DNA of 20,217 bases from Promethearchaeota archaeon (GTDB taxonomy: Archaea > Asgardarchaeota > Lokiarchaeia > Sigyniarchaeales > SOKP01), in assembly GCA_018238625.1 (NCBI GenBank), contig JABCSY010000073.1, forward strand, positions 1 to 20,217, in the 5' to 3' direction. The position numbers and the translations under genes were made by a program. Under the pieces are notes generated by a model. It did no database searches. It was not told the origin of the DNA and was given only the letters and a program-made list of their open reading frames with translations. Of the stretch, positions 1,427 through 19,658 are shown in pieces. The number at the start of each line of letters is the position of its first letter. Position 1 is the stretch's first letter.

Positions 1427-2920
1427 TTATTTGATATTGGATAGATTCTTATGAGTGCCATCGTAAATGTATTTTCCATAAACTAACTCTTGTGGGTAAT
1501 ATTTACAACCTGCGGGATAAGCAGAATCCTTTATTCCCCCTAATGAAACGGTGATATCAACCAACATTGGTTTTGCGTTAATGTAAATATTTGCAGCTTC
1601 TAATTGATTCTTAAAAACCTCAATATTGTTCAAATTAGAAGTGTAAACTACTGCTCTCATACCATAATTACTCGCATTTGCTAATCTAATTGCGTCTTTC
1701 ATATCTTTGGCTTTAGTAATAGAACGGACAGGTCCAAAAGCTTCTTCTCTCCACAAAAACGGCGCTTTTGTTAAATCTTCACACAATTCTGGTTTAATTT
1801 CAACCAGAGTTGGTTTGTAAAACAATCCATAATCCTCGCCAGTATCGATTTTGTCTGCTCCGGTATAGATTTTAACACCATATTCTTTAGCGTCAGCTAT
1901 CATCACTTCCATCATCATTAGTATACGTCGACTTCCTAATGGCCCAATATCAACGGTGGGATCTGTAGGGTCTCCATATTTTAGTTTCTCAATTTCTCTT
2001 ATTAGACATTCTATATATTCATCATATATATCTTGGTGGACTATAATACGCTTCATTGAGAAGCATTGCTGCCCGCTGTTAGTATAGCTGGCTACGGCAT
2101 TCCATTTTGCTACATGCTCTAAATTAACGTCATTCATTACTATTCCAGCATCGTTTCCTGCGCACTCGAAGAAGAATTGTTTGAAAGGTTGAGTATACAT
2201 TGTGACCCCCATTGATTTATCTGCAGTTTTTTTCAGCATCCTTCCATATCTCACAAGAATATCTTTTGCTGTATGCGAAGAGGTAACCGTCATTATAATC
2301 TTGACTAACTGAGAATTAAGAAATTCATCTACGGCCCATTCTCCAGGAGCTATAACCAAATCTAATGCATCTAACCCCGGAAAATCCATATCTTTCATGG
2401 TGGAATAAGCCTCTAACATGGTTAAGGGGCATGCGGTAGATGGTTTAACAATCGCACCATTTCCTACTAAATAATTAGCGCCCATCTGATAAAGGGGAAG
2501 GCTAATAGGTGTGTTACGGGGAGAAATACAAGCAGATAATCCATGGGGGATATTTTTTATTATTACATTTTTCTCTCCATCAATACCAGTTAATGGTTTG
2601 TCTTCAATAAATTGATAATACCAATCGCAAAATTTGAATCCCGTTAGAACGATATTGAGTTCCCATTCCGAATATTTGATCGGAAGTCCACCTTCTGCTA
2701 CAATAAGATCCTTTAATTGATTTTTTTTAAACCGGAGTTTGGCTGCAAATTTTGAAAGAATTTGGGCTCGCTCAAAAAAATCCATTTCTCTTAATAAATG
2801 TTGATTTTTATGTACTTTTTTTATTTTTGCTTGAACTGTTTCCGGTGTGTCAGCAGGGATAGTTCTTATAACTTCACCCGTATATTTATTCTTGATTATT
2901 AATTCTTTTACTTTTGACAT
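1427..2920 (-). CDS. NAD(P)-dependent aldehyde dehydrogenase (ALDH superfamily), divergent
   Basis: Conserved ALDH landmarks: PRNTP (oxyanion Asn), VKPS, ECAGND (general-base Glu), SGQQCFS (catalytic Cys), GDPTDPTVDIGPL, EEAFGPV, ANASNYGM. Confidence 0.93.
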   Translation of the reverse strand: MSKVKELIIKNKYTGEVIRTIPADTPETVQAKIKKVHKNQHLLREMDFFERAQILSKFAAKLRFKKNQLKDLIVAEGGLPIKYSEWELNIVLTGFKFCDWYYQFIEDKPLTGIDGEKNVIIKNIPHGLSACISPRNTPISLPLYQMGANYLVGNGAIVKPSTACPLTMLEAYSTMKDMDFPGLDALDLVIAPGEWAVDEFLNSQLVKIIMTVTSSHTAKDILVRYGRMLKKTADKSMGVTMYTQPFKQFFFECAGNDAGIVMNDVNLEHVAKWNAVASYTNSGQQCFSMKRIIVHQDIYDEYIECLIREIEKLKYGDPTDPTVDIGPLGSRRILMMMEVMIADAKEYGVKIYTGADKIDTGEDYGLFYKPTLVEIKPELCEDLTKAPFLWREEAFGPVRSITKAKDMKDAIRLANASNYGMRAVVYTSNLNNIEVFKNQLEAANIYINAKPMLVDITVSLGGIKDSAYPAGCKYYPQELVYGKYIYDGTHKNLSNIK

Positions 2921-3004
2921 ATTTCCATTTTACCTTTATATTTTAGTATTATTCCAACTTTAAAATTTACCTTAAAAAAAAATTATTACGTAATATTATT
3001 AAGC

Positions 3005-3469
3005 TTAATTCTCATCTTCGAGAATACCAGCAGTTTGAGCAAATTTTCCATAGCCCATATCAATTAAGGTTTGCGTCCTCTTGTGCAAAACAAAATCAAT
3101 CCATCCTTTTTCCTCGTCTGGTTCATTGTAAAAATATCCAAAAAGCTTTGTATATTCCACTTTCGTTTTTGTTTGGATTAATTTTTCAATAGCCTTGCTC
3201 GAGAGCGCTAATTCCAAATCAGGATTAACCGCATTCCCTGGCTTTATTTCGATCCCATGCCCATTACATAATACATTAAAAATATCTACAGGAGATTCAT
3301 CGTCATATGCTCCAAATGAATCATAAATTGCAAAATCAAAGTTTGATCCATGAACTAAATCAGAAAAAATCTCAGGGTATTGTGCCAGAAATGCTGTATA
3401 ATTTTTCGCTATTTCCGTCTTATATTCATTAATATCAGTAATTTGACTTAATAATTCTTTTTCAACCAT
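3005..3469 (-). CDS. Hypothetical protein, possible SCP2/sterol-carrier-like fold; paralog of 999..1406
   Basis: 154 aa with ATG start, 12 bp downstream of the SDR. Contains GIEIKPGNAVNPDLELALSSKAIEKLI, which resembles the SCP2 beta-strand/PD(L/V)T segment. Confidence 0.62.
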   Translation of the reverse strand: MVEKELLSQITDINEYKTEIAKNYTAFLAQYPEIFSDLVHGSNFDFAIYDSFGAYDDESPVDIFNVLCNGHGIEIKPGNAVNPDLELALSSKAIEKLIQTKTKVEYTKLFGYFYNEPDEEKGWIDFVLHKRTQTLIDMGYGKFAQTAGILEDEN

Positions 3470-3481
3470 TTTTTATCATTC

Positions 3482-4471
3482 TTACAATTTTTCTTTTTCA
3501 ATAAAATCTTTATACCATTCAATGGTTTTTATTAAACCTTCTCTTAAAGGCGTTATTTTGTAACCTATTTTTTCAATGGCTTTTTTTGAGGAGTAAGACC
3601 TATGAATTTTAATAGCGGAAACAGTAGGGCGCGTAATATAAGGTATTTTCCCGCTAATTTTTGCTCTAATTTCACACATCCAAGCGTATAACATGGCGCC
3701 CGACATTGGGAAATGTCTAGGCTTTTTAGTTTCCGCAATTTCAGCAATTAAATTGAGATAATCTCCAAAGGATACATTTTCTCCTCCAAGTATGAAATCT
3801 TCACCGCGCACATCATCTTTATCAATTACATTTACCATTCCATCAACAATATCGTTAATATAAGAATAAGTTGCTATCGAATCTCCTTTTCCAGGACACC
3901 CTAAGAATTTTCCTCTCGTGATATCATAAAGCATTTGACCAAAAATGTTGAAATCACCTGGACCATAGACAATACCAGGATAGAAAATTGTCGCATTTAA
4001 CCCTTTACCTATATATTCTTTAACTTTCCATTTTGCAAGGAACTTTGATTTTTCGTATTCCATAGAAAAGTTTTCCTTTTCATAGGTTTCGTCTACGGGC
4101 TCTGGGGTCGTTGGGCCAATAGCAGTAAAAGAACTTACGTAGTTAAATTTTATGTTATTCTTCATTGCGAGACTAGCAATGTTTTCAGTTCCTATAACAT
4201 TCACATCATGATAAAGAGATTTCTTCTTTGCCCAAATTGGAACATACGCTGCAAGATGGTATATAATATCAATATTGTCTACAGCCTTTTCCAAACTACT
4301 GATATCTTGAATATCACCAGTAATATATTCAATATTACTAAGATCTTTAAAAGGAGCTGTGTTACTACTCTCCCTTACTAAAAGTTTTAAGTCATGTCCT
4401 AATTGCTGTAGTTTTTTTACCAATGGAATGCCAATAAATCCCGTACCGCCAGTCACTAATATATTTGCCAT
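3482..4471 (-). CDS. Extended SDR, NAD-dependent epimerase/dehydratase (HpnA / dihydroflavonol reductase / 3-beta-HSD-like)
   Basis: ILVTGGTGFIG Rossmann motif, HLAA, NVIGT, YVSS, catalytic YEKSK and PGIVYGPGD. Start moved from 4519 to the ATG at 4471 (MANILVTGG), directly before the Rossmann strand. Confidence 0.92.
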   Translation of the reverse strand: MANILVTGGTGFIGIPLVKKLQQLGHDLKLLVRESSNTAPFKDLSNIEYITGDIQDISSLEKAVDNIDIIYHLAAYVPIWAKKKSLYHDVNVIGTENIASLAMKNNIKFNYVSSFTAIGPTTPEPVDETYEKENFSMEYEKSKFLAKWKVKEYIGKGLNATIFYPGIVYGPGDFNIFGQMLYDITRGKFLGCPGKGDSIATYSYINDIVDGMVNVIDKDDVRGEDFILGGENVSFGDYLNLIAEIAETKKPRHFPMSGAMLYAWMCEIRAKISGKIPYITRPTVSAIKIHRSYSSKKAIEKIGYKITPLREGLIKTIEWYKDFIEKEKL

Positions 4472-4707
4472 ATCAAAAAGATAAGTATTTTTATTCAAAT
4501 TTTGAATATTTAAAATCATTAAATTTGGTTTTTAAAGCTTCTCAAATCTTAGGGGTTTGTAACACTTAAGAGTATTAAGAATAGGAGAATTAGAATTTTT
4601 CATTTTGTACAAATTGCTTCTTTTTTAGCTTAAATTTTAATTTAAAAAAGTAATAATAAAATTATATTAACTCAAACAAAATTCTTAGTTAATCTGCTAA
4701 ATTTCAC

Positions 4708-5256
4708 ATGTTAAAAATGAATAGAGAGAATTTTCTTTCACAACTTCAATTACCTTTTTTAGCAACACCAAGGCATCTACTGGAAGAAATATTTCATATT
4801 CTTCAAGTTAAATTTGGTTTAACGAGAAACTCTAACCAAAAACTTGTAGATTTGGGGGCGGGGAATGGTCAAATAATCATCTATTCTGTTTTAAATTATG
4901 GAATAAAGTCATTTGGCATTGAAATCAATGAGAATTTAATTATTGAAGCAAGACAAAAAATAAAGAAGTTAAAAAAAGAAAAGAAATATAAGAGAAAGTT
5001 ATTTCGCAAGATTAAATTAAGACAAGAAGATTTTTTTAATATTTCTTTAGAAAAATATAATTTTGTATATATTTATTCCTTGCCTACAATGCAAAAATTA
5101 TTAAATCACGTGTTTTTAACAGCAAAACCAGGAGTAGTCGTCATATCTTTTAAATACCCGCTGAATGATTTTGAGAAGATTCTGAAATTGTCGTATAAAT
5201 TAGAGTTAAAGGGTGATCAGCAAGATTTTAATACCTATTATTATGTTAAATTATAA
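4708..5256 (+). CDS. Class I SAM-dependent methyltransferase, aKMT / FAM173 / DOT1-like protein-lysine methyltransferase
   Basis: LPFLATP pre-motif, motif I VDLGAGNG, post-I GIEIN, QEDFF, VYIY and VVISFKYP follow the pattern recalled for archaeal aKMT/FAM173. Confidence 0.8.
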   Translation: MLKMNRENFLSQLQLPFLATPRHLLEEIFHILQVKFGLTRNSNQKLVDLGAGNGQIIIYSVLNYGIKSFGIEINENLIIEARQKIKKLKKEKKYKRKLFRKIKLRQEDFFNISLEKYNFVYIYSLPTMQKLLNHVFLTAKPGVVVISFKYPLNDFEKILKLSYKLELKGDQQDFNTYYYVKL

Positions 5257-5424
5257 AAAATTAATCAATTTTAATTTCTCTCCGCTTTAATACTAATTAA
5301 GATTATTAAATCGTAATATTCTGATATTACCCTGGTATGTAAGGAATCCCGTGAAATGAGTGTTTCACGATCTGAAATATTAAAAAATCTTTCTCTCTTT
5401 AAAAAAAGTATATAAGTTAGAAGG

Positions 5425-6300
5425 TTAAGTACCATTCCACGATATTACATATTTCAATTCTTCGGGGTTCTCAATATCTGGTTCTGAGAACGCCCACTTT
5501 CCACCCATTCCGACTTCTTTCGCACTCAGATCAAAGTGACATACAGCAATCCCAATATCGAGACCTACAAAATTGTTATAAATCGAACCTTTCTTATCTT
5601 TTGAGAACCTTACGTAAAAATGAAAATTATCAGCATCCAGCTCTTTTATTATTCTCCATGGTTGCTTATTACCCGCAGATGGACCAAGACGAACCATTTC
5701 TAGTAAAGTTGCGTATTTACCAATATTTTCTTGAGAAAGAGTAGTAGAGAAATCTCGTTCAAAAAAAAGCTGATCCCATGGATATCTTGCGTTAGCTTTT
5801 ACGAACGAACGAATTACTTTTTCTTTTGCTCTTCTTGTTTCTGCGGCGTACCCTACAGGTGTAATTGCGGGTACAACTTCGTCAGGTCCGCATTCAACTT
5901 TTTTAGAAAAAAGACTTTGATTAAAAAAACCTCCTAACCAACATGTACCTAAATTCATATCAGTTGCTGATAAAATAATAGCTTCTAAAAGATAACCATA
6001 ATTTTCCCGGGCATAATCAGACTTTTCAGATTTTTCAACTGCTCCAACAATAAATTCTTGGGCACCCTTTATCAATCCATAAGTACCCAACTTTTTTTTT
6101 TCATCCGGATCAAATTCTGGCATACCTATTAAATTAAATCGGCAATTCCCAGCAACCTCGCTAAACGGACTTTTAAAATTACGCAATTTTAATATTTCTA
6201 GCAACTTTTCCTTTACTTGATCTTCAAGTAACCGTTTAGAATAAGTCCTCCAAGAAGTTCGCTGCTTTATAATATCAAATATTGATTTAGAGAATACCAT
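5425..6300 (-). CDS. Nitroreductase-family FMN-binding protein (two-domain TM1586-like)
   Basis: RTSWRTY FMN-binding N-terminus, LGTCWLGG, PSAGNKQPW and DIGIAVCHF. Confidence 0.9.
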   Translation of the reverse strand: MVFSKSIFDIIKQRTSWRTYSKRLLEDQVKEKLLEILKLRNFKSPFSEVAGNCRFNLIGMPEFDPDEKKKLGTYGLIKGAQEFIVGAVEKSEKSDYARENYGYLLEAIILSATDMNLGTCWLGGFFNQSLFSKKVECGPDEVVPAITPVGYAAETRRAKEKVIRSFVKANARYPWDQLFFERDFSTTLSQENIGKYATLLEMVRLGPSAGNKQPWRIIKELDADNFHFYVRFSKDKKGSIYNNFVGLDIGIAVCHFDLSAKEVGMGGKWAFSEPDIENPEELKYVISWNGT

Positions 6301-6642: not shown

Positions 6643-8229
6643 ATGAAGATATTATATGTAAATCCGGCTCGTTTACAGTCGGGGTTAGACGCAATAATTA
6701 CGGGTTCTCCCTTAAGCTTAATTTCGATCGCTGCTATGGTACCAGAGCACGAGGCAAAATTGTTTGATTTTAAGGTAGATAAATATCGAGAAAAGCAATT
6801 TCGTAGCGAATTAAATCGTTACGATGTAGTAGCTATTACAAGCATGACGCCTCAAATCTATTCAGCATTGGAGGTTGCAAAAATGGCTAAAGAACAAGGA
6901 TGCACCACAATTATAGGGGGATATCATCCTACACTAGTACCTGAATTCGTAGCTAAGCACGATTACGTAGATTTTACCGTTCGTGGTGAAGGAGAACATA
7001 CCTTTAAAGAGATTATTGATTATATCGATGGCAACAAAAACAATGTTTCGATAAAAGAAATTGACGGAATATCGTACTTGAATAAAGACGGTAAAATAAT
7101 CCACAATAATGAGCGACAGTTGGAATGTAATTTAGATAATTTTCCGTTGCCTCGTAGAGATCTTTTAAAAGGAAAACTTTACACTTATTTAGGAACAACA
7201 ACTCAGCAAGTTGAAACTTCTCGAGGTTGTCCACACAATTGCAAGTTTTGTTGCATAATTAAGATGTGGCGAAATTCGAATCAAAATATTACTTACAGAA
7301 CTAAATCAATTACACGAATTATGCAAGAGATTTACGACGTAGATTGGAAAAACGATTTTATATTCTTTTGCGAAGATAATTTTACCATAAACGCAAAACG
7401 AACGCATAAAATTTTAGATACAATTATAAAGTCGGGTGTCCCAAATAAGATGCACTTTTCCTGCCAATCTCGGGTTGATACTTTGTATAGAAACCCTATA
7501 TTAATCGAAAAACTTTATAAAGCTGGATTTAAGCAAGTATTTCTAGGTATTGAATCAGTACATCAACAAAGTTTAGATGCTATGAATAAGAAAAACACAA
7601 CGCCCGCTATGGTTCAAAAAGTGGTAAAAAGCCTACGAGATAAAGGCATATCCATCTTTGGAGGCGTTATTATTGGCTTCCCGGGAGAAACAAAACGGAT
7701 GGTTCGGCAGAATATCCAGTATGCGATTGATTTAGATTTAGATGTTGTTCAGTTTACACCGATTACCGCTTTTCCTGGGACCGATTTTTACGACGAAGTG
7801 AAAGAAAAGGGCATGATAACTGCTCATAATTATAAATTTTACGATTTGTTCCATCCAATGATGAGAACTGAGGAATTATCGTCTAAAGATTTCCTTCAAT
7901 TAGTTGCTGAAGGTTACGCCGCTTTCTACTTAAGAAGTTGGATCATAAGAAGAGCAAAAGAGTATATGAATCCGTTTGGAAAATTTAATTGGATGCTTTC
8001 ATGTATGGGTAAATTAATCAAACAAGGTGTTTTAGGTGGATTGGGCATGCTATACACCCAAGGAATTACAAGTAAAGTTATATCTGACGAACTAAGGAAC
8101 CCAGAGGAACTAATGAAGGACATTTATATCTCCAGCGAGAACCCAATTGTAAAAGCCTCCGAACCAAATATTAAACCCAAAATTTTTACACACGATAATG
8201 TTAGAGAAGAAATAAGTGAACAAACTTAA
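6643..8229 (+). CDS. Cobalamin-binding radical SAM enzyme
   Basis: N-terminal B12-binding Rossmann domain (IIGGYHPT, VRGEGE), TSRGCPHNCKFC (CxxxCxxC), EDNF, GIES, IIGFPGET and FPGT. Confidence 0.93.
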   Translation: MKILYVNPARLQSGLDAIITGSPLSLISIAAMVPEHEAKLFDFKVDKYREKQFRSELNRYDVVAITSMTPQIYSALEVAKMAKEQGCTTIIGGYHPTLVPEFVAKHDYVDFTVRGEGEHTFKEIIDYIDGNKNNVSIKEIDGISYLNKDGKIIHNNERQLECNLDNFPLPRRDLLKGKLYTYLGTTTQQVETSRGCPHNCKFCCIIKMWRNSNQNITYRTKSITRIMQEIYDVDWKNDFIFFCEDNFTINAKRTHKILDTIIKSGVPNKMHFSCQSRVDTLYRNPILIEKLYKAGFKQVFLGIESVHQQSLDAMNKKNTTPAMVQKVVKSLRDKGISIFGGVIIGFPGETKRMVRQNIQYAIDLDLDVVQFTPITAFPGTDFYDEVKEKGMITAHNYKFYDLFHPMMRTEELSSKDFLQLVAEGYAAFYLRSWIIRRAKEYMNPFGKFNWMLSCMGKLIKQGVLGGLGMLYTQGITSKVISDELRNPEELMKDIYISSENPIVKASEPNIKPKIFTHDNVREEISEQT

Positions 8230-8325: not shown

Positions 8326-9336
8326 ATGGAAGAAGTAATTCCCGGTATATTTTTGATTAAAGAGAAAAGTGGTTTCGAGCGAATTAAGCCTTCAGAAAAC
8401 ATTTTTGTTATAGCAGGTCCTGATGGATTAATCTTTGACGCTGGTTTTGGTAATAAAAAGGTTGTAAAATTCTTTATTAAAGAAATTAACAAAATAGAAC
8501 AGTTGTATAGAGATAACAAAGAAGAATTTAAAATAACGCGAATTCTTGTGTCTCATGGCCACCCTGATCATTTTGCAGGGTTAAAAAAGATAAGAAATTC
8601 ACTTGGAGTTAAAATTGTCCTAACAAAGAAAACAGCTGATATTATAAAGAACAAAAAAAGTTTTATGAAATCGTTTAACTCAGATAGTTATGAAGATTAT
8701 CTAATCATACAAAAAGGGTTTCGGTACAGAATAAGGAGCTTCTTAGAAAAACTTATGTTTAGCTTTTTTTTTAAACGAATATATGGCCTTTCTTTTATCG
8801 CCAAACCTGATAAAATTATTAAAGAAAATACTGAAATTTCAATAAACGGTGAGGATTGGAAGGTGTTTCCATCGCCAGGTCATGCCGTAGACCATATTTC
8901 TTTGTACAACGAAAAAAAGGGGATTCTACTTTCTGGAGATAATGTTTTATCAAAGACTACTTGGCTTGGTCCTCCAAATTGCAACATAAACGATTATATT
9001 GAATCTGTTGAGACGATTCAGAAATTACCAAACCTTAAAATTATATTAGCCGCTCATGGAGCCCTTATAAACAACCCAATAGAGCGAACTATTGAGATAT
9101 TAAAGCATAGAAAGGATCGGACCAAGCAAGTACTAGATATTGTTAAAGATTTTACTGAAAATGGGACATCTCCCGATGAGATCATTCAAAAATTGTATCC
9201 AAATAAAAAGAAAATGCGAACCGAAATCGCTCGTGGATGGGTGTGCCTTACGTTAAAGATGCTTGAAGAACAAAATGTTATAAAACGAATTGAAGGTAAG
9301 AAAGAGATAAAGTTTTACCCAACAAATAAATTATAA
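8326..9336 (+). CDS. Metallo-beta-lactamase-fold hydrolase with C-terminal winged helix (LACTB2-like architecture)
   Basis: FDAG, SHGHPDH, SPGHAVDH, SGDN and AHG metal ligands are all intact. The C-terminal helix-turn-helix ends LKMLEEQNVIKR. Confidence 0.88.
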   Translation: MEEVIPGIFLIKEKSGFERIKPSENIFVIAGPDGLIFDAGFGNKKVVKFFIKEINKIEQLYRDNKEEFKITRILVSHGHPDHFAGLKKIRNSLGVKIVLTKKTADIIKNKKSFMKSFNSDSYEDYLIIQKGFRYRIRSFLEKLMFSFFFKRIYGLSFIAKPDKIIKENTEISINGEDWKVFPSPGHAVDHISLYNEKKGILLSGDNVLSKTTWLGPPNCNINDYIESVETIQKLPNLKIILAAHGALINNPIERTIEILKHRKDRTKQVLDIVKDFTENGTSPDEIIQKLYPNKKKMRTEIARGWVCLTLKMLEEQNVIKRIEGKKEIKFYPTNKL

Positions 9337-9392: not shown

Positions 9393-10778
9393 TTGGTGAA
9401 AAATCTGAAAATTACTATGATCGGAGCGGGAAGTATCGTATTTGGACAAAATATCCTAACTGACATCCTTGCACATCCTGCTCTAAGAGAAGATACTCTA
9501 ATTTGTCTCGAAGATATCGATCCGACTCGTTTAGATTTAATGTATAAATTAATGCTAAAGTATAAGGAATCAAATCCAGAAAAGTTGGAGGGCGTATCGT
9601 TTGAGAAGACAACTGATCTAAAGAAATCTATCACTAACGCTAAATATTTAATCAGTGCTATTCACGTGGGTGGATTAGATGCTTTTAAGCACGACATAGA
9701 AATCCCATTTAAGTACGGCGTCACTCAGTGCGTAGGGGATACTCTCGGTCCAGGAGGAATATTTCGATTTTTACGTCAATCCACAGCACTTAAGAAAATA
9801 GTTGAATTAATCAAAGAAGTTGGATATAATTCTGAATTAAAACCCTTATTACTTAACTATGCTAATCCAATGGCAATGAATACTTGGTATTCTAATTCCA
9901 TTTATCCAGATTCAACTGTAGGTTTATGTCATGGCGTACAAGGGACTGCAGCTCTATTACGACATTGGATAGGTGTTAAACGCGTAGATTTCAGTTATTT
10001 ATGTGTGGGAATCAACCATATGGCTTGGTTCTTGAATGCATGCTACAAAAACCCTATTGATTCAAATAAAACTTGGAAAAACATATATCCGCTATTGAAT
10101 GAAGCCTACAAAAACAACCCTGAAATTGTTGGAAGTGAAAAAATCCGTTGGGATATGATGGACGCTACGGGATATTTTATGACTGAATCCTCAGGTCATC
10201 TAAGTGAATACTTACCATATTACAGAAAAAGGAAAGGTTTGCTCGAACAATATAAAGGTGCTGAAACTTTCCATAACAGTCTAATACACGGAGAGGTATT
10301 AAGATTTGATAGCATTGAAGCGGATAAAATAGAAAAACGTCTAATTAGACGAATTAAAAAAAAAAACCTTAAATTAAAAAAAGCCCCCACCGATGAATAC
10401 GCTTCACACATTATAAACGCAATAGAAACGAATAAACCTTTTAGGTTTAATGGTAATGTAATTAACAAAGAAGGCGCTCTAATAACAAATTTACCAAAAG
10501 ATTGCTGTGTCGAGGTACCTGTGTTTGCTGATTATCATGGAATACATCCACAGGGAGGAATAAAATTGCCTACTATCTGTCAAGCGTTGTGTATATCAAA
10601 TGTCATGGTCCAAAAAGCGGCAGTTGAAGGCGCTCTTGAATTAGATCGAGAAAAAATTTATCACGCAGTATTACTCGATCCTAATACAGCAAGCGTGTGT
10701 TCTCCAAAAGAAATTAGAGAAATGGTCGATGATATGTTTGATGCCGAAAAAGAATGGCTCCCTCAGTTTGAAAGTTAA
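9393..10778 (+). CDS. melA: Glycoside hydrolase family 4, NAD+/Mn2+-dependent alpha-galactosidase-like
   Basis: IGAGSIVF, QCVGDTLGPGGIFR, NYANP, GLCHG, GINHMAW, TESSGHLSEYLPYY and LLDP. Start is TTG 9393 or GTG 9396. Confidence 0.9.
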   Translation: MVKNLKITMIGAGSIVFGQNILTDILAHPALREDTLICLEDIDPTRLDLMYKLMLKYKESNPEKLEGVSFEKTTDLKKSITNAKYLISAIHVGGLDAFKHDIEIPFKYGVTQCVGDTLGPGGIFRFLRQSTALKKIVELIKEVGYNSELKPLLLNYANPMAMNTWYSNSIYPDSTVGLCHGVQGTAALLRHWIGVKRVDFSYLCVGINHMAWFLNACYKNPIDSNKTWKNIYPLLNEAYKNNPEIVGSEKIRWDMMDATGYFMTESSGHLSEYLPYYRKRKGLLEQYKGAETFHNSLIHGEVLRFDSIEADKIEKRLIRRIKKKNLKLKKAPTDEYASHIINAIETNKPFRFNGNVINKEGALITNLPKDCCVEVPVFADYHGIHPQGGIKLPTICQALCISNVMVQKAAVEGALELDREKIYHAVLLDPNTASVCSPKEIREMVDDMFDAEKEWLPQFES

Positions 10779-11104: not shown

Positions 11105-11986
11105 ATGCCTAAAGCGAAAGTTAACAATATTGAAATAGAGTATGATACATTTGGAGATTCCTCATCAAAACCTTTACTTTTGGTAATGGGTTTAGGCGCT
11201 CAGATGATTGCTTATCTTGAGGAGTTTTGTATGATGCTAGTAGATAAAGGATTCTACGTAATTCGATTCGATAATCGAGATGTAGGATTATCTACTAAAT
11301 TTGAAGAAGCTGGCGTACCAAATATTATGAATGATGTTATGGCCCTCCAGCGAGGAGAAACTATATCAGCACCTTATACTGTAGAAGATATGGCTGATGA
11401 TGCTGTTGGGCTATTAGATGTCCTTAACATCGAAAAAGCTCATATTTGCGGTACATCGATGGGAGGGATGATTGTTCAGACAATTGCATTCCGCCATCCA
11501 ACCCGCGTTCTGAGCCTAACTTCAATAATGAGTACAACAGGAAATCCTAATCTTCCTCAAGCTAAGCCAGAAGTTATGCAAGTAATATTAAAACCTGTGC
11601 CCACAGAGCGCGAGGCTTATATTAAGGAATCAGTGAAACGCAAGCGTATTATTTATGGATCTGGCTTTCCTTATCATGAAGATAAAGCGCGCGAACTTGC
11701 CGCAGCCTCATACGACCGTTCATTTTATCCACAAGGAATGGCGCGACAAATGGTTGCAATATTAGCTGATAGAAACCGTAAACCAAAACTTGGATCAATA
11801 AAAGTTCCTACACTTGTAATTCATGGAAGCGATGATCCTTTAGTTCCTGTTGAAGGTGGTAAAGAAACAGCAGAATCTATCCCTGGAGCGGAATTGATAA
11901 TCATTGAGGGCATGGGCCATTCTTTAGCACTTGAAGCTTGGCCTCAAATTGTAGATGCAATTGCTAAAAACGCTAATAAAGTATAA
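11105..11986 (+). CDS. Alpha/beta-fold hydrolase (esterase/lipase, RdmC/LipG-like)
   Basis: LVMGLGAQ oxyanion segment, RFDNRDVGLS, nucleophile GTSMGG, acid in IHGSDDPLVP and His in GMGH. Confidence 0.93.
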   Translation: MPKAKVNNIEIEYDTFGDSSSKPLLLVMGLGAQMIAYLEEFCMMLVDKGFYVIRFDNRDVGLSTKFEEAGVPNIMNDVMALQRGETISAPYTVEDMADDAVGLLDVLNIEKAHICGTSMGGMIVQTIAFRHPTRVLSLTSIMSTTGNPNLPQAKPEVMQVILKPVPTEREAYIKESVKRKRIIYGSGFPYHEDKARELAAASYDRSFYPQGMARQMVAILADRNRKPKLGSIKVPTLVIHGSDDPLVPVEGGKETAESIPGAELIIIEGMGHSLALEAWPQIVDAIAKNANKV

Positions 11987-12033: not shown

Positions 12034-13284
12034 ATGTCAGAAAATTCGAATAAAGCAACGCCTAAAAAGATTAAGGATATTAGCCCATTTGATGTTCTAA
12101 CATCTCTGGAAGTTAAATTCAAGCATCCTTTGAAAGATGTGCATACTGCTACTTTACCAATTGCTGGTTGCGCTTGGGTAGATACAGATGATGGTGTTTT
12201 ATTAATTGATACTTTACTCAATGTACCCGCTGCTAAGAAGGTATTTAAAAAAATCGATGGCATGATTAAATACATTATTTATACTCATGGACACAATGAT
12301 CATGTGGGTGGGGCTGAAGCCTTCATAGCTGACCAACCAGAAATTATTGCCAATAAGTATCTTCCAGACCGATTGGATAAGTACAAAATGTTGGCTCCAC
12401 ATAGAGCTAGAATATTGGCTCAACAATTCAATATACCTGAGATTAAAAGCACTAGAAAATATATTTATCCGACTAAGACATTTTTAGGGGAGATGACTAT
12501 CTCTCTTGGAGATAAAACCTTCGAGCTTCACACAGCTCGTGCTGAAACCGATGATGCTTGCTGGATCTATGTTCCAGAGCTAAATGCGGTTTTTATAGGT
12601 GATTTGATGATTGGATATTTCCCAAATATTGGTAATCCATGGAAACCTACTCGTTTCGCCCTAGATTGGATAAATGCTTTAGAAGAGATTCGAACTATAG
12701 AACCAAATTACGTTTTTTGTAGCGGTGCAGCGGTTATATATAGAGGTAAAAGAGTTTTAAAGGCTTTGGATGCAAATATCGAGGTTATTCGGTCGATGCA
12801 TGATCAAGTTGTAAAATATATCAATCAAGATATGCACATTTCGGAAATGATCCATGCTGTAAAAATCCCAGATCACCTCAAAAAAAGTCCTTATCTTAAA
12901 TTAGCTTACTCTAGACCTGAGTTTTTCGTTTATAATGTTTACCGCTGGTATCATGGTTATTTTGATCATAACCCAGCTCATCTCTTACCTAGACCTGAAA
13001 GGGAAGTCTGTGCTGAAATCTTCGAGCTTATTGGTGACTCAAATAAAATTATAAACAGAGCAAAACAACTTCTCAATCAAGGACAAGCACAGCTTGGCCT
13101 TCAAGTCTTGGACTTGCTGATCCAATCCGATCCTGAAAATATTGAAGCGCGAAAGTTACGAATTGAGCTTCTTAAGGATTTAGGTAATAGAGATTATTGC
13201 CTTATGTCTCGAAATGCATGGTTTCACTTCATAAATAAAGATAAAGATTTCATCCAAACTAAAATAAAGAAAAAGTCTATTTAA
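12034..13284 (+). CDS. Alkyl-sulfatase-like MBL-fold hydrolase (SdsA1/BDS1 family) with dimerisation domain and no SCP2 C-domain
   Basis: THGHNDHVGG, ETDD, GDL...FPNIGNP-x-K-x-x-R and RWYHGYFDHNPAHL. Helical C-terminus ending MSRNAW. Confidence 0.85.
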   Translation: MSENSNKATPKKIKDISPFDVLTSLEVKFKHPLKDVHTATLPIAGCAWVDTDDGVLLIDTLLNVPAAKKVFKKIDGMIKYIIYTHGHNDHVGGAEAFIADQPEIIANKYLPDRLDKYKMLAPHRARILAQQFNIPEIKSTRKYIYPTKTFLGEMTISLGDKTFELHTARAETDDACWIYVPELNAVFIGDLMIGYFPNIGNPWKPTRFALDWINALEEIRTIEPNYVFCSGAAVIYRGKRVLKALDANIEVIRSMHDQVVKYINQDMHISEMIHAVKIPDHLKKSPYLKLAYSRPEFFVYNVYRWYHGYFDHNPAHLLPRPEREVCAEIFELIGDSNKIINRAKQLLNQGQAQLGLQVLDLLIQSDPENIEARKLRIELLKDLGNRDYCLMSRNAWFHFINKDKDFIQTKIKKKSI

Positions 13285-13436: not shown

Positions 13437-14093
13437 TTATGGAATAATTTTATTTATTAAATCTCTTAATTCTCTAAGGACGAATTTTCTATATTCATCA
13501 GCAAACAATTTTTCTTCTTCTATTATAATAGGTTCCGTAATTTTTGTGTGCAATTTGAGATCTGCTTCTACTTTCGCTACTCCTACGACAATTCCATATA
13601 AATAATAAAGATATCTAATAGCATCAGAGTCTTTTGCATTTCCAGCGCTTAGTGCTTGTTTCATAATTTTCAATAAATATTCTATTATAAAAAAAGGCTT
13701 ATAGGCTTGTTCGAGAGGTCCTATCCGTTTGGATGATGGGGCAGAAACTAAATACATCATTGCAAATCGATTAAAATCGACACTTGCAAATTCTAAGAAG
13801 AATTCTACTATTTTGTAACAAAGAATTCTATAATTTCCTTGATTTTCATTTATAATTATATCTAATCCTGCTTTATACTGATTATAATATCTTATCCGAA
13901 TAGCAATCCAAAGTTCTCTTTTACTCTGGACATAATGATATAGATTTGCTTGGGACATATTCAAATGTTTTACTAATGATCGCATACTGAATTTATAAGG
14001 ACCTTGTTTAACAAACATTTCAGATCCTACATCTAGAATTTTTTCATATTGAATAGCTTTTTTTTCTGATGATCTAGCTCTCGAAGTTCTCAT
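13437..14093 (-). CDS. TetR/AcrR-family transcriptional regulator
   Basis: N-terminal HTH ILDVGSEMFVKQG...SMRSLVKHLNMSQANLYHYVQSKREL. The C-domain FLEFA...RFAMMY resembles the WHG-type TetR C-terminus. Divergent from the MFS gene. Confidence 0.92.
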   Translation of the reverse strand: MRTSRARSSEKKAIQYEKILDVGSEMFVKQGPYKFSMRSLVKHLNMSQANLYHYVQSKRELWIAIRIRYYNQYKAGLDIIINENQGNYRILCYKIVEFFLEFASVDFNRFAMMYLVSAPSSKRIGPLEQAYKPFFIIEYLLKIMKQALSAGNAKDSDAIRYLYYLYGIVVGVAKVEADLKLHTKITEPIIIEEEKLFADEYRKFVLRELRDLINKIIP

Positions 14094-14282: not shown

Positions 14283-14334
14283 ATTTCTTGAATCAAAAAA
14301 TTATTAAAAAAAATTGAATTTGAAGGAAAATATT

Positions 14335-15732
14335 ATGACAGAATCTGAAGAATCCACGAAATATGAACCCTATAGTAATAAAAAAATGGCAATTTTTGGA
14401 ATAGGTGGCATAATCGGCACTTTTATGTGGATAGTACGAGGAAAAATGCAGCTATTTGCTACTATGGCGCTGGGTGTACCAGTGTCAATGATTATTGTAA
14501 TTATAGGAGTATGGGTAATTTGGGATGCAATTAACGATCCGGTTACAGGTTATTTTCTAGATAAATCTAAGCGTTTTACCTCAAAACATGGAAAACGATA
14601 TCCTTTTATTCTGATTGGACAAGTTGGAGCTTTATTATCTCTTATTTTACTTTTCTTGCCTATCGTAGGAAACCCTACATTTGCTATAATATGGTTAATA
14701 ATCGCAATTTGTATTTGGGATCAATTCCAAACTATCTTGGAATTAAGTTCTCATGGGCTAATCGTTGATCTTTTTCGAGATGAAAAACAAAGAGTAAAAT
14801 TGGGATCAATTTTATCTGCTTTAGGTGCAATAGGTACGTTAATTGGATCTATACTAATACCAATAATGCTTGGAATGTTTGGTGGCCAAGATGAACCGAT
14901 GGCTTATATGTTAACAACAACAATAATGGTTGTAGTTTGTTTAGTATTAACTGTACCTTATAGCTTTGCTATCCGAGAACCTGCTGAAATGAAAGAATTA
15001 CGAACAACATTGGATGGAGAAGGAAAGAGCTCATCTCCCTTAATGGAAATAATAGTTCGGGCCTTGAAGGATAGGAATTGGGTTGGGTATATCTTTGGTT
15101 ATGTTTTCTGGGTTGTAGGTATAACTTGTTTAACGGTGGGGATTGATTTCTACATGGTTGATGCCTTAGGTTTACCTATTGGAGCCGCTGCTTTACCATC
15201 ACTTGCACTTCTTAGTGTAAATTTCCTTTTTATACCTGTTTGGATAAAAATATCAAAAAAATTAGGGGCTAGGAAAACATACTTTTGGGCTTTAATAACT
15301 TGTTTTGCTGCTGCCGCCCTTTTCACTTTTTCAACTGATCTCCCTACGACATTAATATTTGCTGGCTTAGCAGGTATAGGTAATAGTGGGCAAGCTGTAG
15401 TTTTTAATGCAGTATATTCTGAAGCGATTGATAATGCTACTGTAAAATCAGGGAAACGCGAGGAAAGTTCCTATCTGGGAGTAATGCGATTTTTTTCTGC
15501 AACAGGGGTTTTATGGCAAACCATAATTTTTGCAGTAGTAGCAGGTATCAGTGGTTATAACCCAGCAGCAGCAATACATAGTGATGCTGCCAAATTAGGG
15601 CTAAGATTACAAATATCAATAATTCCAGCTATGATTCAGTTAATTGGTGCGCTAGTCTTCTTAAAATTGAATACTATAACAAGAGAAGTTGCTATAGGTA
15701 ATAATAAAAAATTAATAGAAATGGGACTTTAA
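14335..15732 (+). CDS. MFS transporter, glycoside-pentoside-hexuronide (GPH/MelB-like) family
   Basis: WDAINDPVTGYFLD, GKRYPF, EAIDNA...SGKREESSYLG and IIPA, with about 12 hydrophobic helices. ATG at 14335 is preferred over TTG 14314. Confidence 0.92.
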   Translation: MTESEESTKYEPYSNKKMAIFGIGGIIGTFMWIVRGKMQLFATMALGVPVSMIIVIIGVWVIWDAINDPVTGYFLDKSKRFTSKHGKRYPFILIGQVGALLSLILLFLPIVGNPTFAIIWLIIAICIWDQFQTILELSSHGLIVDLFRDEKQRVKLGSILSALGAIGTLIGSILIPIMLGMFGGQDEPMAYMLTTTIMVVVCLVLTVPYSFAIREPAEMKELRTTLDGEGKSSSPLMEIIVRALKDRNWVGYIFGYVFWVVGITCLTVGIDFYMVDALGLPIGAAALPSLALLSVNFLFIPVWIKISKKLGARKTYFWALITCFAAAALFTFSTDLPTTLIFAGLAGIGNSGQAVVFNAVYSEAIDNATVKSGKREESSYLGVMRFFSATGVLWQTIIFAVVAGISGYNPAAAIHSDAAKLGLRLQISIIPAMIQLIGALVFLKLNTITREVAIGNNKKLIEMGL

Positions 15733-15882: not shown

Positions 15883-18057
15883 TTGCAAAGTGAAGCATTT
15901 GGATATTTTAACGAACCTTTCTTAAAAAAGAATAGAGTATTTTATCGACAATACCAAAGTAATATTATTAAAAAATGTATAGGAAGAAATTCGCTAGTAG
16001 TATTACCAACTGGCTTAGGAAAAACAATTATAGGGATTTTACTTATAGGTAAAGCTCTGGAAAAATATTCAAAATCAAAAGTCATTATTCTTGCCCCAAC
16101 TAGACCTTTAGTTTCGCAACATAAAGCTTCATGTGAGGACTTTTTAAATATTGATTCTAATTTAATTACTTCATTTACAGGCAAGATTTCGCCAGAAAAG
16201 AGAATTGTACTTTTTAACAACTCTAAAATTATAGTATCAACACCTCAAGTAATAAAGAACGATGTAGAAAGAGGGAGATACGACTTAAAACAAGTTTCTC
16301 TAATAATCTTCGACGAAGCACACAGAACGAGAGGTAATTACGCCTATTGTTTTATTTCAAACGAATATCTTAATACTTGTAAAGATCCGCTGGTTTTAGG
16401 GCTAACTGCATCTCCCGGAAAAAGCTATCATCACATTCAACAATTGTGCGATAATTTGTTTATTGAGAATGTTATATTTAAAACCTACGAAGATAAAGAC
16501 GTAAAACAGTACATTTACGATATTGACATGTATTTAGAATTTGTCGATTTGCCTATTAAAGTTTTAGAGTTAAGTGCGATTTGGTATAACTTATTTGAAA
16601 AATTTCTGAGATTCTTTATCGAAAAAAAATTAATTCCACCCAATAAGCGCTATTATTCTAAGTTGGATTTCTTAGGAATATCTCGAGATTTAACGCTCTC
16701 TCTTAGGTATAATAATGGCTATTTACCCGAGTTATCAGAAGAAGAGTACCAAAACGCTCTTTATTTTCAATCTCCACGAATTATAGATTTAGTAAAAGAG
16801 AATTCGCTCAATATCGAATCGATTTATTCTTACAGTTCAAGCTGTATTTCTTTACTACATGGGAAAGATTTGCTAGAATCTCAAAATATCTCGTTATTTG
16901 AAACTTTTTTAGAAAAAATAGAATATAAATCTGGCCATGACATTCTTTCAGCTAAGAGAATTATTAATTCCGACCACTATAAGTTCATTAAAAACATTTT
17001 TGAGCAGGACAACCGTGATAATTACTTACATCCTAAAATTGAAAAGTTATTTTCAATTATAACTGAAGAAACCGAAGAATTTCGTAATAATAAAATCATC
17101 ATTTTTACTCAGTACCGCGAAATGGCAGAATTATTGAAAGGAAAGCTGAAGGAACGCTTTGGAACTCGATTGAGCGTAGAAAAATTTATAGGCCAGTCAA
17201 CCAAGATAAATGATATAGGTTTTTCACAATATCAGCAAGGAGAAATAATAAAACAATTTAAAGCTGGTGAGATAGACGTTCTTGTGGCAACAAGTGTCGC
17301 AGAAGAAGGACTTGATATACCAAATGTCGACGCTATTATTTTTTACGAGCCCGTACCTTCTGAGATAAGGTTAATTCAAAGACGAGGTAGAACCGGACGT
17401 CACGCCCCTGGAAGATGCTATTTGTTAATAGCTAGAGGGACTATAGACATCCCCTTTTACAAAGCTGCTGAACGAAAAGAAATGGCTATGAATTCGGTGC
17501 TATCAGATTCAAAGCAATTGGATTTATGTGATGTAGTTAACCGAGAACAGATATGCTTTAAGACAGTTTCTAATAAAATCTCAGAATTTGATTTAATTAA
17601 AAATTATAAAGAACGGCGTAAAAGAGAAAAAGAACTTCTTGCAAATCGTTCCATCGAAGAAATCATTTCAGAACTTGATAATTTCGTCAAAAGCAACGAG
17701 TTTAAAAAATTTAAAGATTCTGGTGTAACTTTTTATTCAGATATAATAGAGTTGGATAAATTGAAATTGAAATCTTCTATATTAAAACTAAAAGGAAATC
17801 AAAAAGCAAATCAAAAAGTAAAAAATAAGAAAATGACAGAAAGAAAAATTTATATAAATCATAACGTAAAAACATTAATAAGAATTGCTAAAACTTATAG
17901 TGTGGACGGGAAAATGTCTCTTTCGGAATTTAAAGAATATGCTGAAGAAGAAGATATAATTGAAAAAAAGTTTTACGCTCATTTAAATCAAGCCTGCTAT
18001 TTAGGGTACCTTAAAAGAAACGCCAAGGAAGTACATTTCATAAAGGACTACGATTAA
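15883..18057 (+). CDS. Hef/FANCM/Mph1-family SF2 DEAH helicase without an ERCC4 nuclease domain
   Basis: Q motif RQYQ, LPTGLGKT, LAPTRPLV, STPQ, DEAHR, LTASPG, IFTQYR, ATSVAEEGLDIP and IQRRGRTGR. No ERKxxxD nuclease motif in the C-terminal ~190 aa. TTG start. Confidence 0.9.
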   Translation: MQSEAFGYFNEPFLKKNRVFYRQYQSNIIKKCIGRNSLVVLPTGLGKTIIGILLIGKALEKYSKSKVIILAPTRPLVSQHKASCEDFLNIDSNLITSFTGKISPEKRIVLFNNSKIIVSTPQVIKNDVERGRYDLKQVSLIIFDEAHRTRGNYAYCFISNEYLNTCKDPLVLGLTASPGKSYHHIQQLCDNLFIENVIFKTYEDKDVKQYIYDIDMYLEFVDLPIKVLELSAIWYNLFEKFLRFFIEKKLIPPNKRYYSKLDFLGISRDLTLSLRYNNGYLPELSEEEYQNALYFQSPRIIDLVKENSLNIESIYSYSSSCISLLHGKDLLESQNISLFETFLEKIEYKSGHDILSAKRIINSDHYKFIKNIFEQDNRDNYLHPKIEKLFSIITEETEEFRNNKIIIFTQYREMAELLKGKLKERFGTRLSVEKFIGQSTKINDIGFSQYQQGEIIKQFKAGEIDVLVATSVAEEGLDIPNVDAIIFYEPVPSEIRLIQRRGRTGRHAPGRCYLLIARGTIDIPFYKAAERKEMAMNSVLSDSKQLDLCDVVNREQICFKTVSNKISEFDLIKNYKERRKREKELLANRSIEEIISELDNFVKSNEFKKFKDSGVTFYSDIIELDKLKLKSSILKLKGNQKANQKVKNKKMTERKIYINHNVKTLIRIAKTYSVDGKMSLSEFKEYAEEEDIIEKKFYAHLNQACYLGYLKRNAKEVHFIKDYD

Positions 18058-18119: not shown

Positions 18120-19658
18120 ATGGTAAAAATGGATATCAACTCATTTCTAAGAAGAAAAGGAAAAAAATGGTTGTTCCTTGATTCGGCACTAATAATAAAC
18201 ATGGCTGTTTTAACGTTAATAATGCTTATTTTTCACGTATATTGGGGGGATATTAATATAATTGTTTCTGATTATGTTAATTTTGATATAAACCTCGTAT
18301 TTATAATTATTGTGATCGTACTACTTCCGCTAATTTATGGAGCCGCGATTCTTCATGTGCATCTTAGGAATATTAAAAAACATAACGAAATTAAACCTTG
18401 TATCCTAAACAAAATTTTACCATTAGTTCTAATGTTCATATATTCAAGTTTATTCGCACTATTATTGTTAGAATTAGAACAATACTCCCGATTAATTCCT
18501 CAAGTTATTGAATTTTATAGTATATTTTTAACAATACCACTTTCGCTCTTACTTATTTTGGGCTTATATCCTTTGATAAAATCAATCCCACAGTGGAAAA
18601 ATCATTTATCAAATAGGATATTAAATGTAGAAATAAAATCAAAAGTTATTTTAGGTCTTTTAATTACTGGATATTTTTTTGCTTTCGCATCTCCACTATT
18701 GTTTATCCCCTCAAATGTGATTTCTGGTGATCTTCCACCCAAACCCAACATTATAGCGCATAGAGGCGCATCGCATTTAGCCCCCGAAAACACTATTGTA
18801 GCTGGAGAATTAGCAGTAGAACGCGGAGCTGTAGGTTGGGAAGTCGATATAAGAATTTCTGTTGACGGAGAATTAATTTTGATGCATGACGATACTCTCA
18901 CTCGAACCACTAATGTAGAGGATATTTTTCCAAATCGTAAGAACGATCTCGCTGAAACGTTCACGCTTTCTGAACTCAGACAATTAGACGCTGGTAGTTG
19001 GTTTGCGGATAAAGATCCATATGGTGCTTTAACTTTTGGACGTGTTTCAAAAGAAGACGGAGACAATTACAGAGGGTTACAAATTCCTACATTTGAAGAA
19101 ATCTTAAATTTTACGAGAGATAATGACTTTTTAATAGATTTTGATATTAAATCACCATCATCCAGCCATCTCTATAAGGATGTTTATTTTGAAACAATTT
19201 TGAACGAAACACTCGAATCAGGAATTAATTTGACAAGAGTTATGATTTTCACGAGCGACGCTGAATGGATTGATTTGATCAATCAAAAAAATGCCACTGA
19301 TGTTTTATTAGGCATGGATATGAGATCTAATCCTTCCTTAGAAGAATTCGAAACATCTGAATATAATTATACAATTATCAAAACAGGAGATGAATACTCT
19401 AATGAATTATATAGATCGTTTTATTCAAGTAATATCCCTGTTATGGTCTATACAATCGATAGTATCGAAAGATTCAGTCAACTCTGGTGCTTAGGGACGG
19501 CTTTTGTTATGACTAACGAAGTACACACATTTAACGATCTGAAAAACCCAATCTGGTATCTTAATATAGAAAGTTACATCGTTCTTTGGAGCATTATATA
19601 CGTTGCAGCTTTAAGTTCTTTGCTCATTATAAAATTTGTCTTACTTAAAAAAAGATAA
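18120..19658 (+). CDS. Six-TM membrane glycerophosphodiester phosphodiesterase, GDE2/GDE3/GDE6-like
   Basis: Five N-terminal hydrophobic helices, then a GDPD domain (IAHRGASHLAPENT, EVD, LMHD-x-TLTRTT, LDAGSWF, IPTFEE, YTID, MTN), then one C-terminal TM and a KKR tail. Confidence 0.9.
   Translation: MVKMDINSFLRRKGKKWLFLDSALIINMAVLTLIMLIFHVYWGDINIIVSDYVNFDINLVFIIIVIVLLPLIYGAAILHVHLRNIKKHNEIKPCILNKILPLVLMFIYSSLFALLLLELEQYSRLIPQVIEFYSIFLTIPLSLLLILGLYPLIKSIPQWKNHLSNRILNVEIKSKVILGLLITGYFFAFASPLLFIPSNVISGDLPPKPNIIAHRGASHLAPENTIVAGELAVERGAVGWEVDIRISVDGELILMHDDTLTRTTNVEDIFPNRKNDLAETFTLSELRQLDAGSWFADKDPYGALTFGRVSKEDGDNYRGLQIPTFEEILNFTRDNDFLIDFDIKSPSSSHLYKDVYFETILNETLESGINLTRVMIFTSDAEWIDLINQKNATDVLLGMDMRSNPSLEEFETSEYNYTIIKTGDEYSNELYRSFYSSNIPVMVYTIDSIERFSQLWCLGTAFVMTNEVHTFNDLKNPIWYLNIESYIVLWSIIYVAALSSLLIIKFVLLKKR

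Follow-up and report, generated by a model that had tools for sequence, protein, structure and literature searches.

A six-transmembrane glycerophosphodiesterase homolog of the animal GDE2/GDE3/GDE6 type in an Asgard archaeon

Contig JABCSY010000073.1 of the Promethearchaeota archaeon genome GCA_018238625.1 (the window; 20,217 bp, the whole of the source contig, C19) contains an open frame on the + strand (18120..19658; ATG start, 512 amino acids, stop codon at 19656-19658) that encodes a protein with five N-terminal transmembrane (TM) segments, a GDPD domain and one C-terminal TM segment. Judged by sequence and profile comparison, this protein, here called the query, is a full-length homolog of the animal six-TM phosphodiesterases GDE2 (GDPD5), GDE3 (GDPD2) and GDE6 (GDPD4), the TM bundle included. 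The six-TM GDE family is common to Asgard archaea, where its presence is patchy, to the bacterial class Anaerolineae and to eukaryotes, where it was found in animals and Amoebozoa. By analogy with the characterised animal enzymes, we propose with moderate confidence that the query is a prokaryotic member of this family which would act in cis as an ecto-phosphodiesterase on inositol-phosphate-type membrane lipids.

Homology and architecture of the query

A word-indexed search with the query listed at least 120 matches of about 500 amino acids each. Among the matches listed, 20 carried the name of an organism and all 20 belonged to Asgard lineages (Promethearchaeota/Loki, Hod, Hermod, Hel and Heimdall), and five of the 12 homologs named by JGI were called 'glycerophosphoinositol inositolphosphodiesterase', which is the activity of GDE3. 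In an exhaustive HMMER search 138 representatives were found at E <= 1e-30. The matches next in rank after the Asgard and Anaerolineae proteins were animal GDPD5-like and GDPD2 proteins. The animal sequences recovered (GDPD5-like, GDPD2 and GDPD4) included those of Littorina (E = 1.4e-52), Tubulanus, Anneissia, Owenia and Priapulus, and the vertebrate ones were GDPD2 of birds and fish and GDPD5 of fish and whale. The alignments with animal proteins spanned TM1 to TM6, covering query residues 12-503 for Owenia (E = 6.7e-42), 23-511 for Priapulus and 56-511 for bird GDPD2, and the 5+1 arrangement was present in nearly all long matches. Soluble GDPDs reached E values of about 1e-36 at best and were aligned only over approximately residues 208-385, so that the six-TM proteins are set apart from the best soluble ones by coverage and not by E-value alone. 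The ESM-Atlas neighbours of the query were from Promethearchaeota (0.98), Chloroflexota (0.95) and Chordata, the latter a GDPD5 (0.90).

The TM region was also compared on its own by hhalign, with all proteins cut before the LPxKP motif, a comparison for which the preliminary description of this DNA had already named human GDPD5 and GDPD2 as the partners. The profile of 31 Asgard sequences matched that of 23 animal sequences at 97.4% (E = 1.4e-11, 178 columns), compared with 1.3% (E = 0.04) for the reversed control. Asgard and Chloroflexota profiles matched at 97.2% (E = 4.5e-11), and Chloroflexota and animal profiles at 83.4% (E = 8.5e-6). A TM region unrelated to GDE2/3/6 is rejected by the Asgard-animal result. 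Bacterial membrane GDPDs of the PF10110 type (about 600 amino acids, found among the distant matches) likewise combine a membrane domain with a GDPD domain. The assignment of the query to this type was rejected, since Pfam gave no match to PF10110 (GPDPase_memb) at E up to 0.1 and the TM domain is homologous to that of GDE2/3/6. In NCBIfam only generic GDPD models were hit, all under their cut-offs.

Kyte-Doolittle windows displayed five hydrophobic segments in the N-terminal part of the query and one at the C-terminus, the latter followed by the tail KFVLLKKR. The five-helix membrane domain (18183..18701, +) comprises TM1 (residues 22-40), TM2 (59-77), TM3 (99-117), TM4 (135-153) and TM5 (176-194), and is delimited by hydropathy, by the helices of an AlphaFold2 (AF2) model and by the TM-only comparison. 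TM6 (residues 491-509 in the hydropathy window) and the basic, putatively cytoplasmic tail (KKR) occupy 19590..19655 (+). The AF2 model, made from an alignment of 60 sequences (pLDDT 94.5, pTM 0.91), has long helices at the TM positions given by hydropathy. The preliminary description, which had read five N-terminal TM segments, a GDPD domain, a C-terminal TM segment and a basic tail from the sequence, thus agrees with hydropathy, PF03009 and AF2. The animal enzymes GDE2/GDPD5, GDE3/GDPD2 and GDE6/GDPD4 are built in the same way, with five TM segments, a GDPD ectodomain, one further TM segment and both termini in the cytoplasm; their six-TM topology is described in the available text of PMC10070723.

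The orientation in the membrane was addressed with the 108 of 121 close homologs that gave a clean 5+1 call. The number of lysine and arginine residues per residue was high in the parts assigned to the inside (N-terminus 0.29, loop 2-3 0.24, loop 4-5 0.285, C-terminal tail 0.376) and low in those assigned to the outside (loop 1-2 0.014, loop 3-4 0.048, GDPD domain 0.075). The GDPD part of these homologs contained 4.38 N-x-S/T sequons relative to 2.44 after shuffling, with counts above expectation in 100 of the 108. The GDPD domain of the query has five sequons (N330, N362, N370, N391 and N416), and the two soluble GDPDs of the same genome have 1 and 0. Because of this charge bias and sequon enrichment the predicted orientation is N-in and C-in with the GDPD domain outside the cell, in line with the outward-facing catalytic domain first suggested from the topology.

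The GDPD TIM-barrel extends over residues 214-468 (18759..19523, +; PF03009, E = 2.7e-26) and has its conserved catalytic and metal positions at H214, R215, E241, D243, H256 and D342. H214, E241, D243, H256 and D342 showed no or almost no variation among the Asgard, Anaerolineae and animal sequences. At the residue level the query is catalytically intact. The three membrane groups had 47 conserved columns in common, of which 30 are generic for GDPDs (HRG, PENT, RTT and the W-F pair among them) and 17 are specific to the family. The latter include the juxtamembrane linker LPPKP (LPxKP in the family; residues 205-209, 18732..18746, +) just ahead of the catalytic HRG, the aspartate D342 in place of the glutamate of soluble GDPDs, the H-P of 'HPY', W456, and the segment between the barrel and TM6 (19548..19589, +) with P477, Y486 and W490. 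W456 and P477 were invariant in a 33-sequence alignment (A1), as were the catalytic positions. We noticed that the canonical H-[RK]-G triplet was absent by pattern search from P0135, P0141, P0163, L052, L063 (Thorarchaeota), P0186, P0195 and P0216; a minority of full-length six-TM family members may have an altered catalytic motif.

Soluble and periplasmic GDPDs (GlpQ, UgpQ; PDB 5t91 and 2pz0) have the same TIM-barrel and the same catalytic His/Arg/Glu/Asp set, and share the 30 generic columns of the 47. Unlike the six-TM proteins they have no TM bundle, carry E at the position of D342 and lack the linker and juxtamembrane motifs. A sequence search of the PDB returned soluble GDPD barrels only (2pz0, E = 1.5e-17). 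Foldseek with the AF2 model also found solved soluble GDPDs only, with a TMt of up to 0.86 and a TMq of approximately 0.43, corresponding to half of the protein. Neither search yielded a solved structure of the six-TM GDE architecture.

Animal rows in alignment A1 were 24-29% identical to the query. Shared with the animal GDEs are LPxKP, the D for the soluble E, the HP of 'HPY', LWC and the P...Y...W pattern. The subfamily motifs singled out in the preliminary description are indeed in the sequence and align with database animal sequences, although some of them (HRG, PENT, RTT, the W-F pair) occur in GDPDs generally. Two features separate the animal proteins from the query: a Cys-rich cytoplasmic N-terminus (C..C..G..GC.W), which forms an animal-only block lacking in the Asgard and Anaerolineae rows, and a long C-terminal tail. 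Both are treated here as animal elaborations and not as family-defining. The earlier wording of a full-length ortholog-like enzyme holds for the full length, TM bundle included, but 'ortholog-like' was an overstatement for a protein without the Cys-rich N-terminus.

Distribution and evolutionary history of the six-TM family

The source of the window is an Asgard archaeon, as had been presumed from the sequence. Orthologs with 85-92% identity are named Promethearchaeota or are located in genomes of the same genus, and the query gene shares its position behind a DEAD/DEAH-box helicase gene (15883..18057, +; directly upstream) with related contigs, including one labelled 'uncultured archaeon'. 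A bacterial or misbinned contig was rejected on the basis of these orthologs and of the archaeal helicase synteny. The genome is 4.29 Mb in size, 97.9% complete and 7.6% contaminated.

The gene is far from universal within the phylum. A six-TM GDPD match at E <= 1e-30 was present in 64 of 400 genomes, in 12 of the 90 of high quality, in 21 of 85 genera and in 12 of 41 genomes of the window's own genus. Matches at the DNA level came from marine sediment, cold-seep and vent metagenomes. In the loci L068 and L073 the helicase is followed by a paralog and then by the ortholog of the query, the two being tandem copies (L068:15-1793 and 2453-4008; L073:205-3899 and 4198-5551; also in G268:C42 and G255:C45), the paralog at approximately 53% amino acid identity. 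Since relatives hold this tandem pair and the window has only the ortholog after the helicase, the comparison suggests that one copy was lost in the lineage of the window.

Outside the archaea, six-TM GDPDs with the same 5+1 architecture and the same family-specific positions were found in the Chloroflexota class Anaerolineae (Brevefilum, Anaerolineaceae, Anaerolineales). Four representatives of this group (P0148, P0151, P0156 and P0168) matched the query with E values from 1.9e-67 to 4.8e-54. The best 80 prokaryotic loci were labelled Chloroflexota in 45 cases, several of them on contigs of 1.8-3.2 Mb, Asgard in 27, 'uncultured archaeon' in five, and otherwise (Nanopelagicaceae, Deferrimicrobium, Bathyarchaeia) in three. 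As their contigs reach 3.2 Mb, the Anaerolineae copies are not binning errors. Many of the Anaerolineae proteins differ from the query in an acidic or Pro-rich C-terminal extension, and they form a clade of their own. The three loci with other labels (L073, L045 and L055) stem from one series of metagenome-assembled genomes and fall on short branches within Asgard clades; L073 has 87% identity to the query and the same helicase synteny. These are probably misbinned Asgard contigs and give no evidence of a wider spread.

Among eukaryotes the family is not confined to animals, as two proteins of Mastigamoeba and one of Rhizamoeba, both Amoebozoa, belong to it. The Mastigamoeba balamuthi proteins P0145 and P0267 are neighbouring models (g12355 and g12357) on one scaffold and have a very long branch; one of the two is 886 amino acids long with three matched stretches. 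When the Rhizamoeba protein was used as the query of a search, none of the 120 matches listed added another named eukaryote from outside the animals.

All phylogenetic trees contained one six-TM clade, GDE2/3/6 included, apart from the soluble GDPDs, and located the query in the Asgard part of it, outside the animal clade. The expected link with the animal enzymes was in this respect borne out, but Anaerolineae and not Asgard archaea were placed next to the eukaryotes. The grouping of Chloroflexota with eukaryotes had a support of 97 in FastTree (152 rows; six-TM clade 100), of 96 in a quick IQ-TREE analysis with posterior mean site frequencies (PMSF; 100 rows; Asgard side 90, six-TM clade 100) and of 99/99 in a careful PMSF analysis (57 rows; six-TM clade 100/99, eukaryotes monophyletic 94/93, Chloroflexota 100/100), and was also present in a fast LG+F+G4 tree of the same number of rows. 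With the trees rooted on the soluble GDPDs, a distant outgroup that has no TM columns, the Asgard sequences formed either a sister clade or a grade at the base. In approximately unbiased (AU) tests under LG+F+G4 with constrained trees built in the -fast mode, a setting weaker than a mixture model, neither the grouping of Asgard with eukaryotes (delta log likelihood 13.3, p = 0.37) nor that of Asgard with Chloroflexota (21.1, p = 0.18) was rejected. The best BLASTP match was from Asgard for 8 and from Chloroflexota for 11 of 19 eukaryote proteins, with near-equal scores.

The evolutionary history of the family may be depicted in more than one way. The animal six-TM GDEs may have come from archaea, because the AU test leaves the Asgard route to eukaryotes unrejected. 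It is also plausible, and tentatively to be considered, that eukaryotes acquired their six-TM GDEs from Anaerolineae-like bacteria, or exchanged them with these, and did not inherit them from an Asgard ancestor; the Asgard copies would then be a parallel branch that arose by transfer between prokaryotes in shared anoxic sediments. Chloroflexota and eukaryotes are joined in every one of the four trees, Chloroflexota hold the larger share of best BLASTP matches, the Anaerolineae copies reside on megabase-sized contigs, and the few Asgard genomes with the gene are as expected from such a history. The AU results and the distant root temper this scenario, however, and the animal TM region is closer to that of Asgard (E = 1.4e-11) than to that of Chloroflexota (E = 8.5e-6). 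The Asgard sequences were moreover the deepest and most diverse in the rooted trees, which is also compatible with an origin in Asgard archaea and a later transfer to Anaerolineae.

A eukaryotic signature protein would have its prokaryotic homologs almost entirely restricted to Asgard archaea and its eukaryotic sequences placed with or within them. Here, Chloroflexota accounted for more than half of the best prokaryotic loci and were joined with the eukaryotes at 99/99. The preliminary description had proposed the query as a candidate of this kind and had named equally close bacterial homologs as the finding that would speak against it. Such homologs do exist, although in one class only; the Anaerolineae share the architecture and stand next to eukaryotes, the gene is present in a minority of Asgard genomes, and what is left of the candidate status is the Asgard-eukaryote grouping that the AU test allows.

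Predicted function and substrate

The properties of the animal enzymes guide the functional reading. According to the available text of PMC11314389, GDE3 works as an ecto-enzyme, depends on Ca2+ in the mM range and performs a phospholipase C (PLC)-type cleavage of glycerophosphoinositol and lyso-phosphatidylinositol; GDE2, GDE3 and GDE6 cleave glycosylphosphatidylinositol (GPI) anchors in cis, as stated there and in the accessible part of PMC10070723. In the query, the five-helix bundle and the sixth helix hold a metal-dependent GDPD barrel on the predicted external side of the membrane, and short family-specific linkers tether it at both ends (LPxKP before, P-x-W...Y...W after). Given this attachment of the barrel, and a TM bundle that archaea and animals have in common, the enzyme would be expected to work in cis, cleaving phosphodiester bonds in substrates embedded in the membrane and not in free solutes. 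As substrates, the cell's own lipids or lyso-lipids with head groups of the inositol-phosphate type would be the likeliest, such as archaetidylinositol and its glycosylated derivatives, from which a PLC- or phospholipase D-like cleavage could release the head group or an attached moiety. The host membrane presumably consists of archaeal ether lipids, which is a difference from the animal GDEs. The genome encodes a myo-inositol-1-phosphate synthase and five CDP-alcohol phosphatidyltransferases. It has a single six-TM copy and, in addition, two ordinary soluble GDPDs, and hence the six-TM form is not its sole housekeeping diesterase. The genes of these soluble enzymes (241 and 244 amino acids) are arranged in tandem at C150:50983-52477 (-) (= L085:1484-2978); both match PF03009 (E = 1e-50 and 3e-48), have no TM segments and appear to be conventional cytoplasmic diesterases.

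Several observations weigh against the proposal of an inositol-lipid phosphodiesterase. Inositol-phosphate synthase was present in 374 of the 400 genomes of the phylum, and being near-universal it does not single out the 64 gene carriers. Substrate specificity varies among GDE2, GDE3 and GDE6, as reported in the available part of PMC11314389, and when even these three differ in specificity, extrapolating their function to another domain of life is weak. The patchy presence, even within the genus, equally suits an accessory or scavenging role. Gene neighbourhoods were compared for 76 of the 80 loci, all except four that were fragmentary, and no conserved neighbour was found in the 35 non-Chloroflexota (mostly archaeal) loci, where the largest neighbour cluster, a histidine kinase, was made up of six of these loci and one of Chloroflexota.

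The main functional rival is surface scavenging, in which the outward GDPD domain would hydrolyse soluble glycerophosphodiesters of the environment, like periplasmic GlpQ, and supply glycerol phosphate, phosphate or inositol, with the six helices serving as an anchor only. The GDPD barrel is nearest to GlpQ/UgpQ-type enzymes in sequence and fold, the gene has an accessory-like distribution, the habitat is organic-rich sediment, cold seeps and vents, and a gene for an MFS_2 transporter is located two genes upstream of the query gene. In the Anaerolineae loci a same-strand PfkB-family sugar kinase gene lies downstream in 21 of 45 and a C_GCAxxG_C_C redox protein gene in 20, both of which the archaeal loci lack; this neighbour conservation may reflect the relatedness of the Anaerolineae only. 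The MFS neighbour is not kept in related loci, however, and five conserved helices are more than an anchor requires; the bundle is recognisable from Asgard to animals and modelled with a pLDDT above 90. The linkers that tether the barrel at both ends, and the characterised family members, which act in cis on membrane lipids or anchors in the literature as far as it was available, also disagree with a role on solutes. We regard scavenging as rather unlikely.

A narrower reading, put forward in the preliminary description, holds that the enzyme sheds proteins or glycans from a GPI-like glyco-inositol-phospholipid anchor on the archaeal surface, as animal GDE2, GDE3 and GDE6 do. Protein shedding is possible but less supported than a general inositol-lipid phosphodiesterase, and in the form first stated it was weakly grounded; we consider it quite improbable. 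It is favoured by the full-length homology to GPI-cleaving GDEs and by a 2026 Nature paper, whose available text derives the eukaryotic GPI-anchor synthesis and transamidase from Asgard archaea (PMC12872458); the words 'glycerophospho' and 'phosphodiesterase' did not occur in the accessible main text of that paper. The genome also encodes a Peptidase_C13 protein (GPI8/legumain family, E = 3e-11), and six PIG-L-family deacetylases along with the inositol-phosphate synthase. Yet PIG-L and C13 are broad families that are not diagnostic, and the Pfam models for GPI2/PIG-C, PIG-M, the PIGA domain, Gaa1, PIG-U and PIG-V had no match in this 97.9% complete genome, in a search that had no positive control; the control genomes were all prokaryotic, with a sub-threshold PIGA match in Methanosarcina only. 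No GPI-anchored archaeal protein was identified in this analysis. The C13 protein has 498 amino acids (C100:4446-5942 (-) = L084:1446-2942), with the C13 domain at the C-terminus and an N-terminal region of about 250 amino acids without assignment.

The most far-reaching scenario combines both lines of argument: the six-TM GDE would be an Asgard invention passed vertically to eukaryotes, with Anaerolineae as a secondary recipient, and would already have released surface proteins or glycans from glyco-inositol-phospholipid anchors in a regulated manner. We hold this to be very unlikely. If true, lipid-anchor shedding, which is known today as a means of signalling in animals, would be older than the eukaryotes.

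Gene context and significance

The start of the query gene may lie slightly downstream of the called one. M4 is an invariant column in alignment A1 (33 sequences) and is aligned with the first Met of the homologs, for which reason the ATG at 18129 is a possible true start.

The rest of the window contains a catabolic-looking run of genes (6643-8229, 8326-9336, 9393-10778, 11105-11986, 12034-13284, 13437-14093 and 14314-15732), the products of which comprise a B12-binding radical SAM protein, two metallo-beta-lactamase-fold proteins, one of them alkyl-sulfatase-like, a GH4 glycosidase, an alpha/beta hydrolase, a TetR regulator and the MFS_2 transporter. No tie between these genes and the GDPD gene was found. 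A 182-amino-acid methyltransferase (4708-5256, +) had DOT1 (histone methylation protein, PF08123, E = 7e-8) as its top Pfam match, with the generic methyltransferase models ranking below it, and is a DOT1-like enzyme in an Asgard contig. In 16 Anaerolineae loci a sulfate-permease/STAS gene was located upstream on the opposite strand; examples of Anaerolineae neighbours are L006:4856-5782 and L017:5413-6102 (loci L004-L044).

Six-TM GDEs have been studied as cell-surface regulators of animals, with roles in neural development, cancer-cell behaviour and endocannabinoid supply, as presented in the available text of PMC10070723 and PMC11314389. No paper on prokaryotic six-TM GDEs was found in the full-text literature, a search to which the supplements of large surveys, which may list the family, did not belong; automatic annotation already gives some homologs the label of GDE3 activity. 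The six-TM GDE is a known family in unexpected lineages; as a eukaryotic signature protein it is not established. It also calls for caution, as the match between Asgard and animals resembled a eukaryotic signature protein until an equally close bacterial clade was found.

The existence of compact homologs of full length in both Asgard archaea and Anaerolineae shows that the six-TM architecture is old and did not first arise in animals. At about 500 amino acids the prokaryotic homologs, the confidently modelled query among them, are small proteins for work on structure and mechanism. They also provide a concrete and testable case for the debate on how far the membrane and lipid functions of eukaryotes go back to Asgard archaea or to bacteria.

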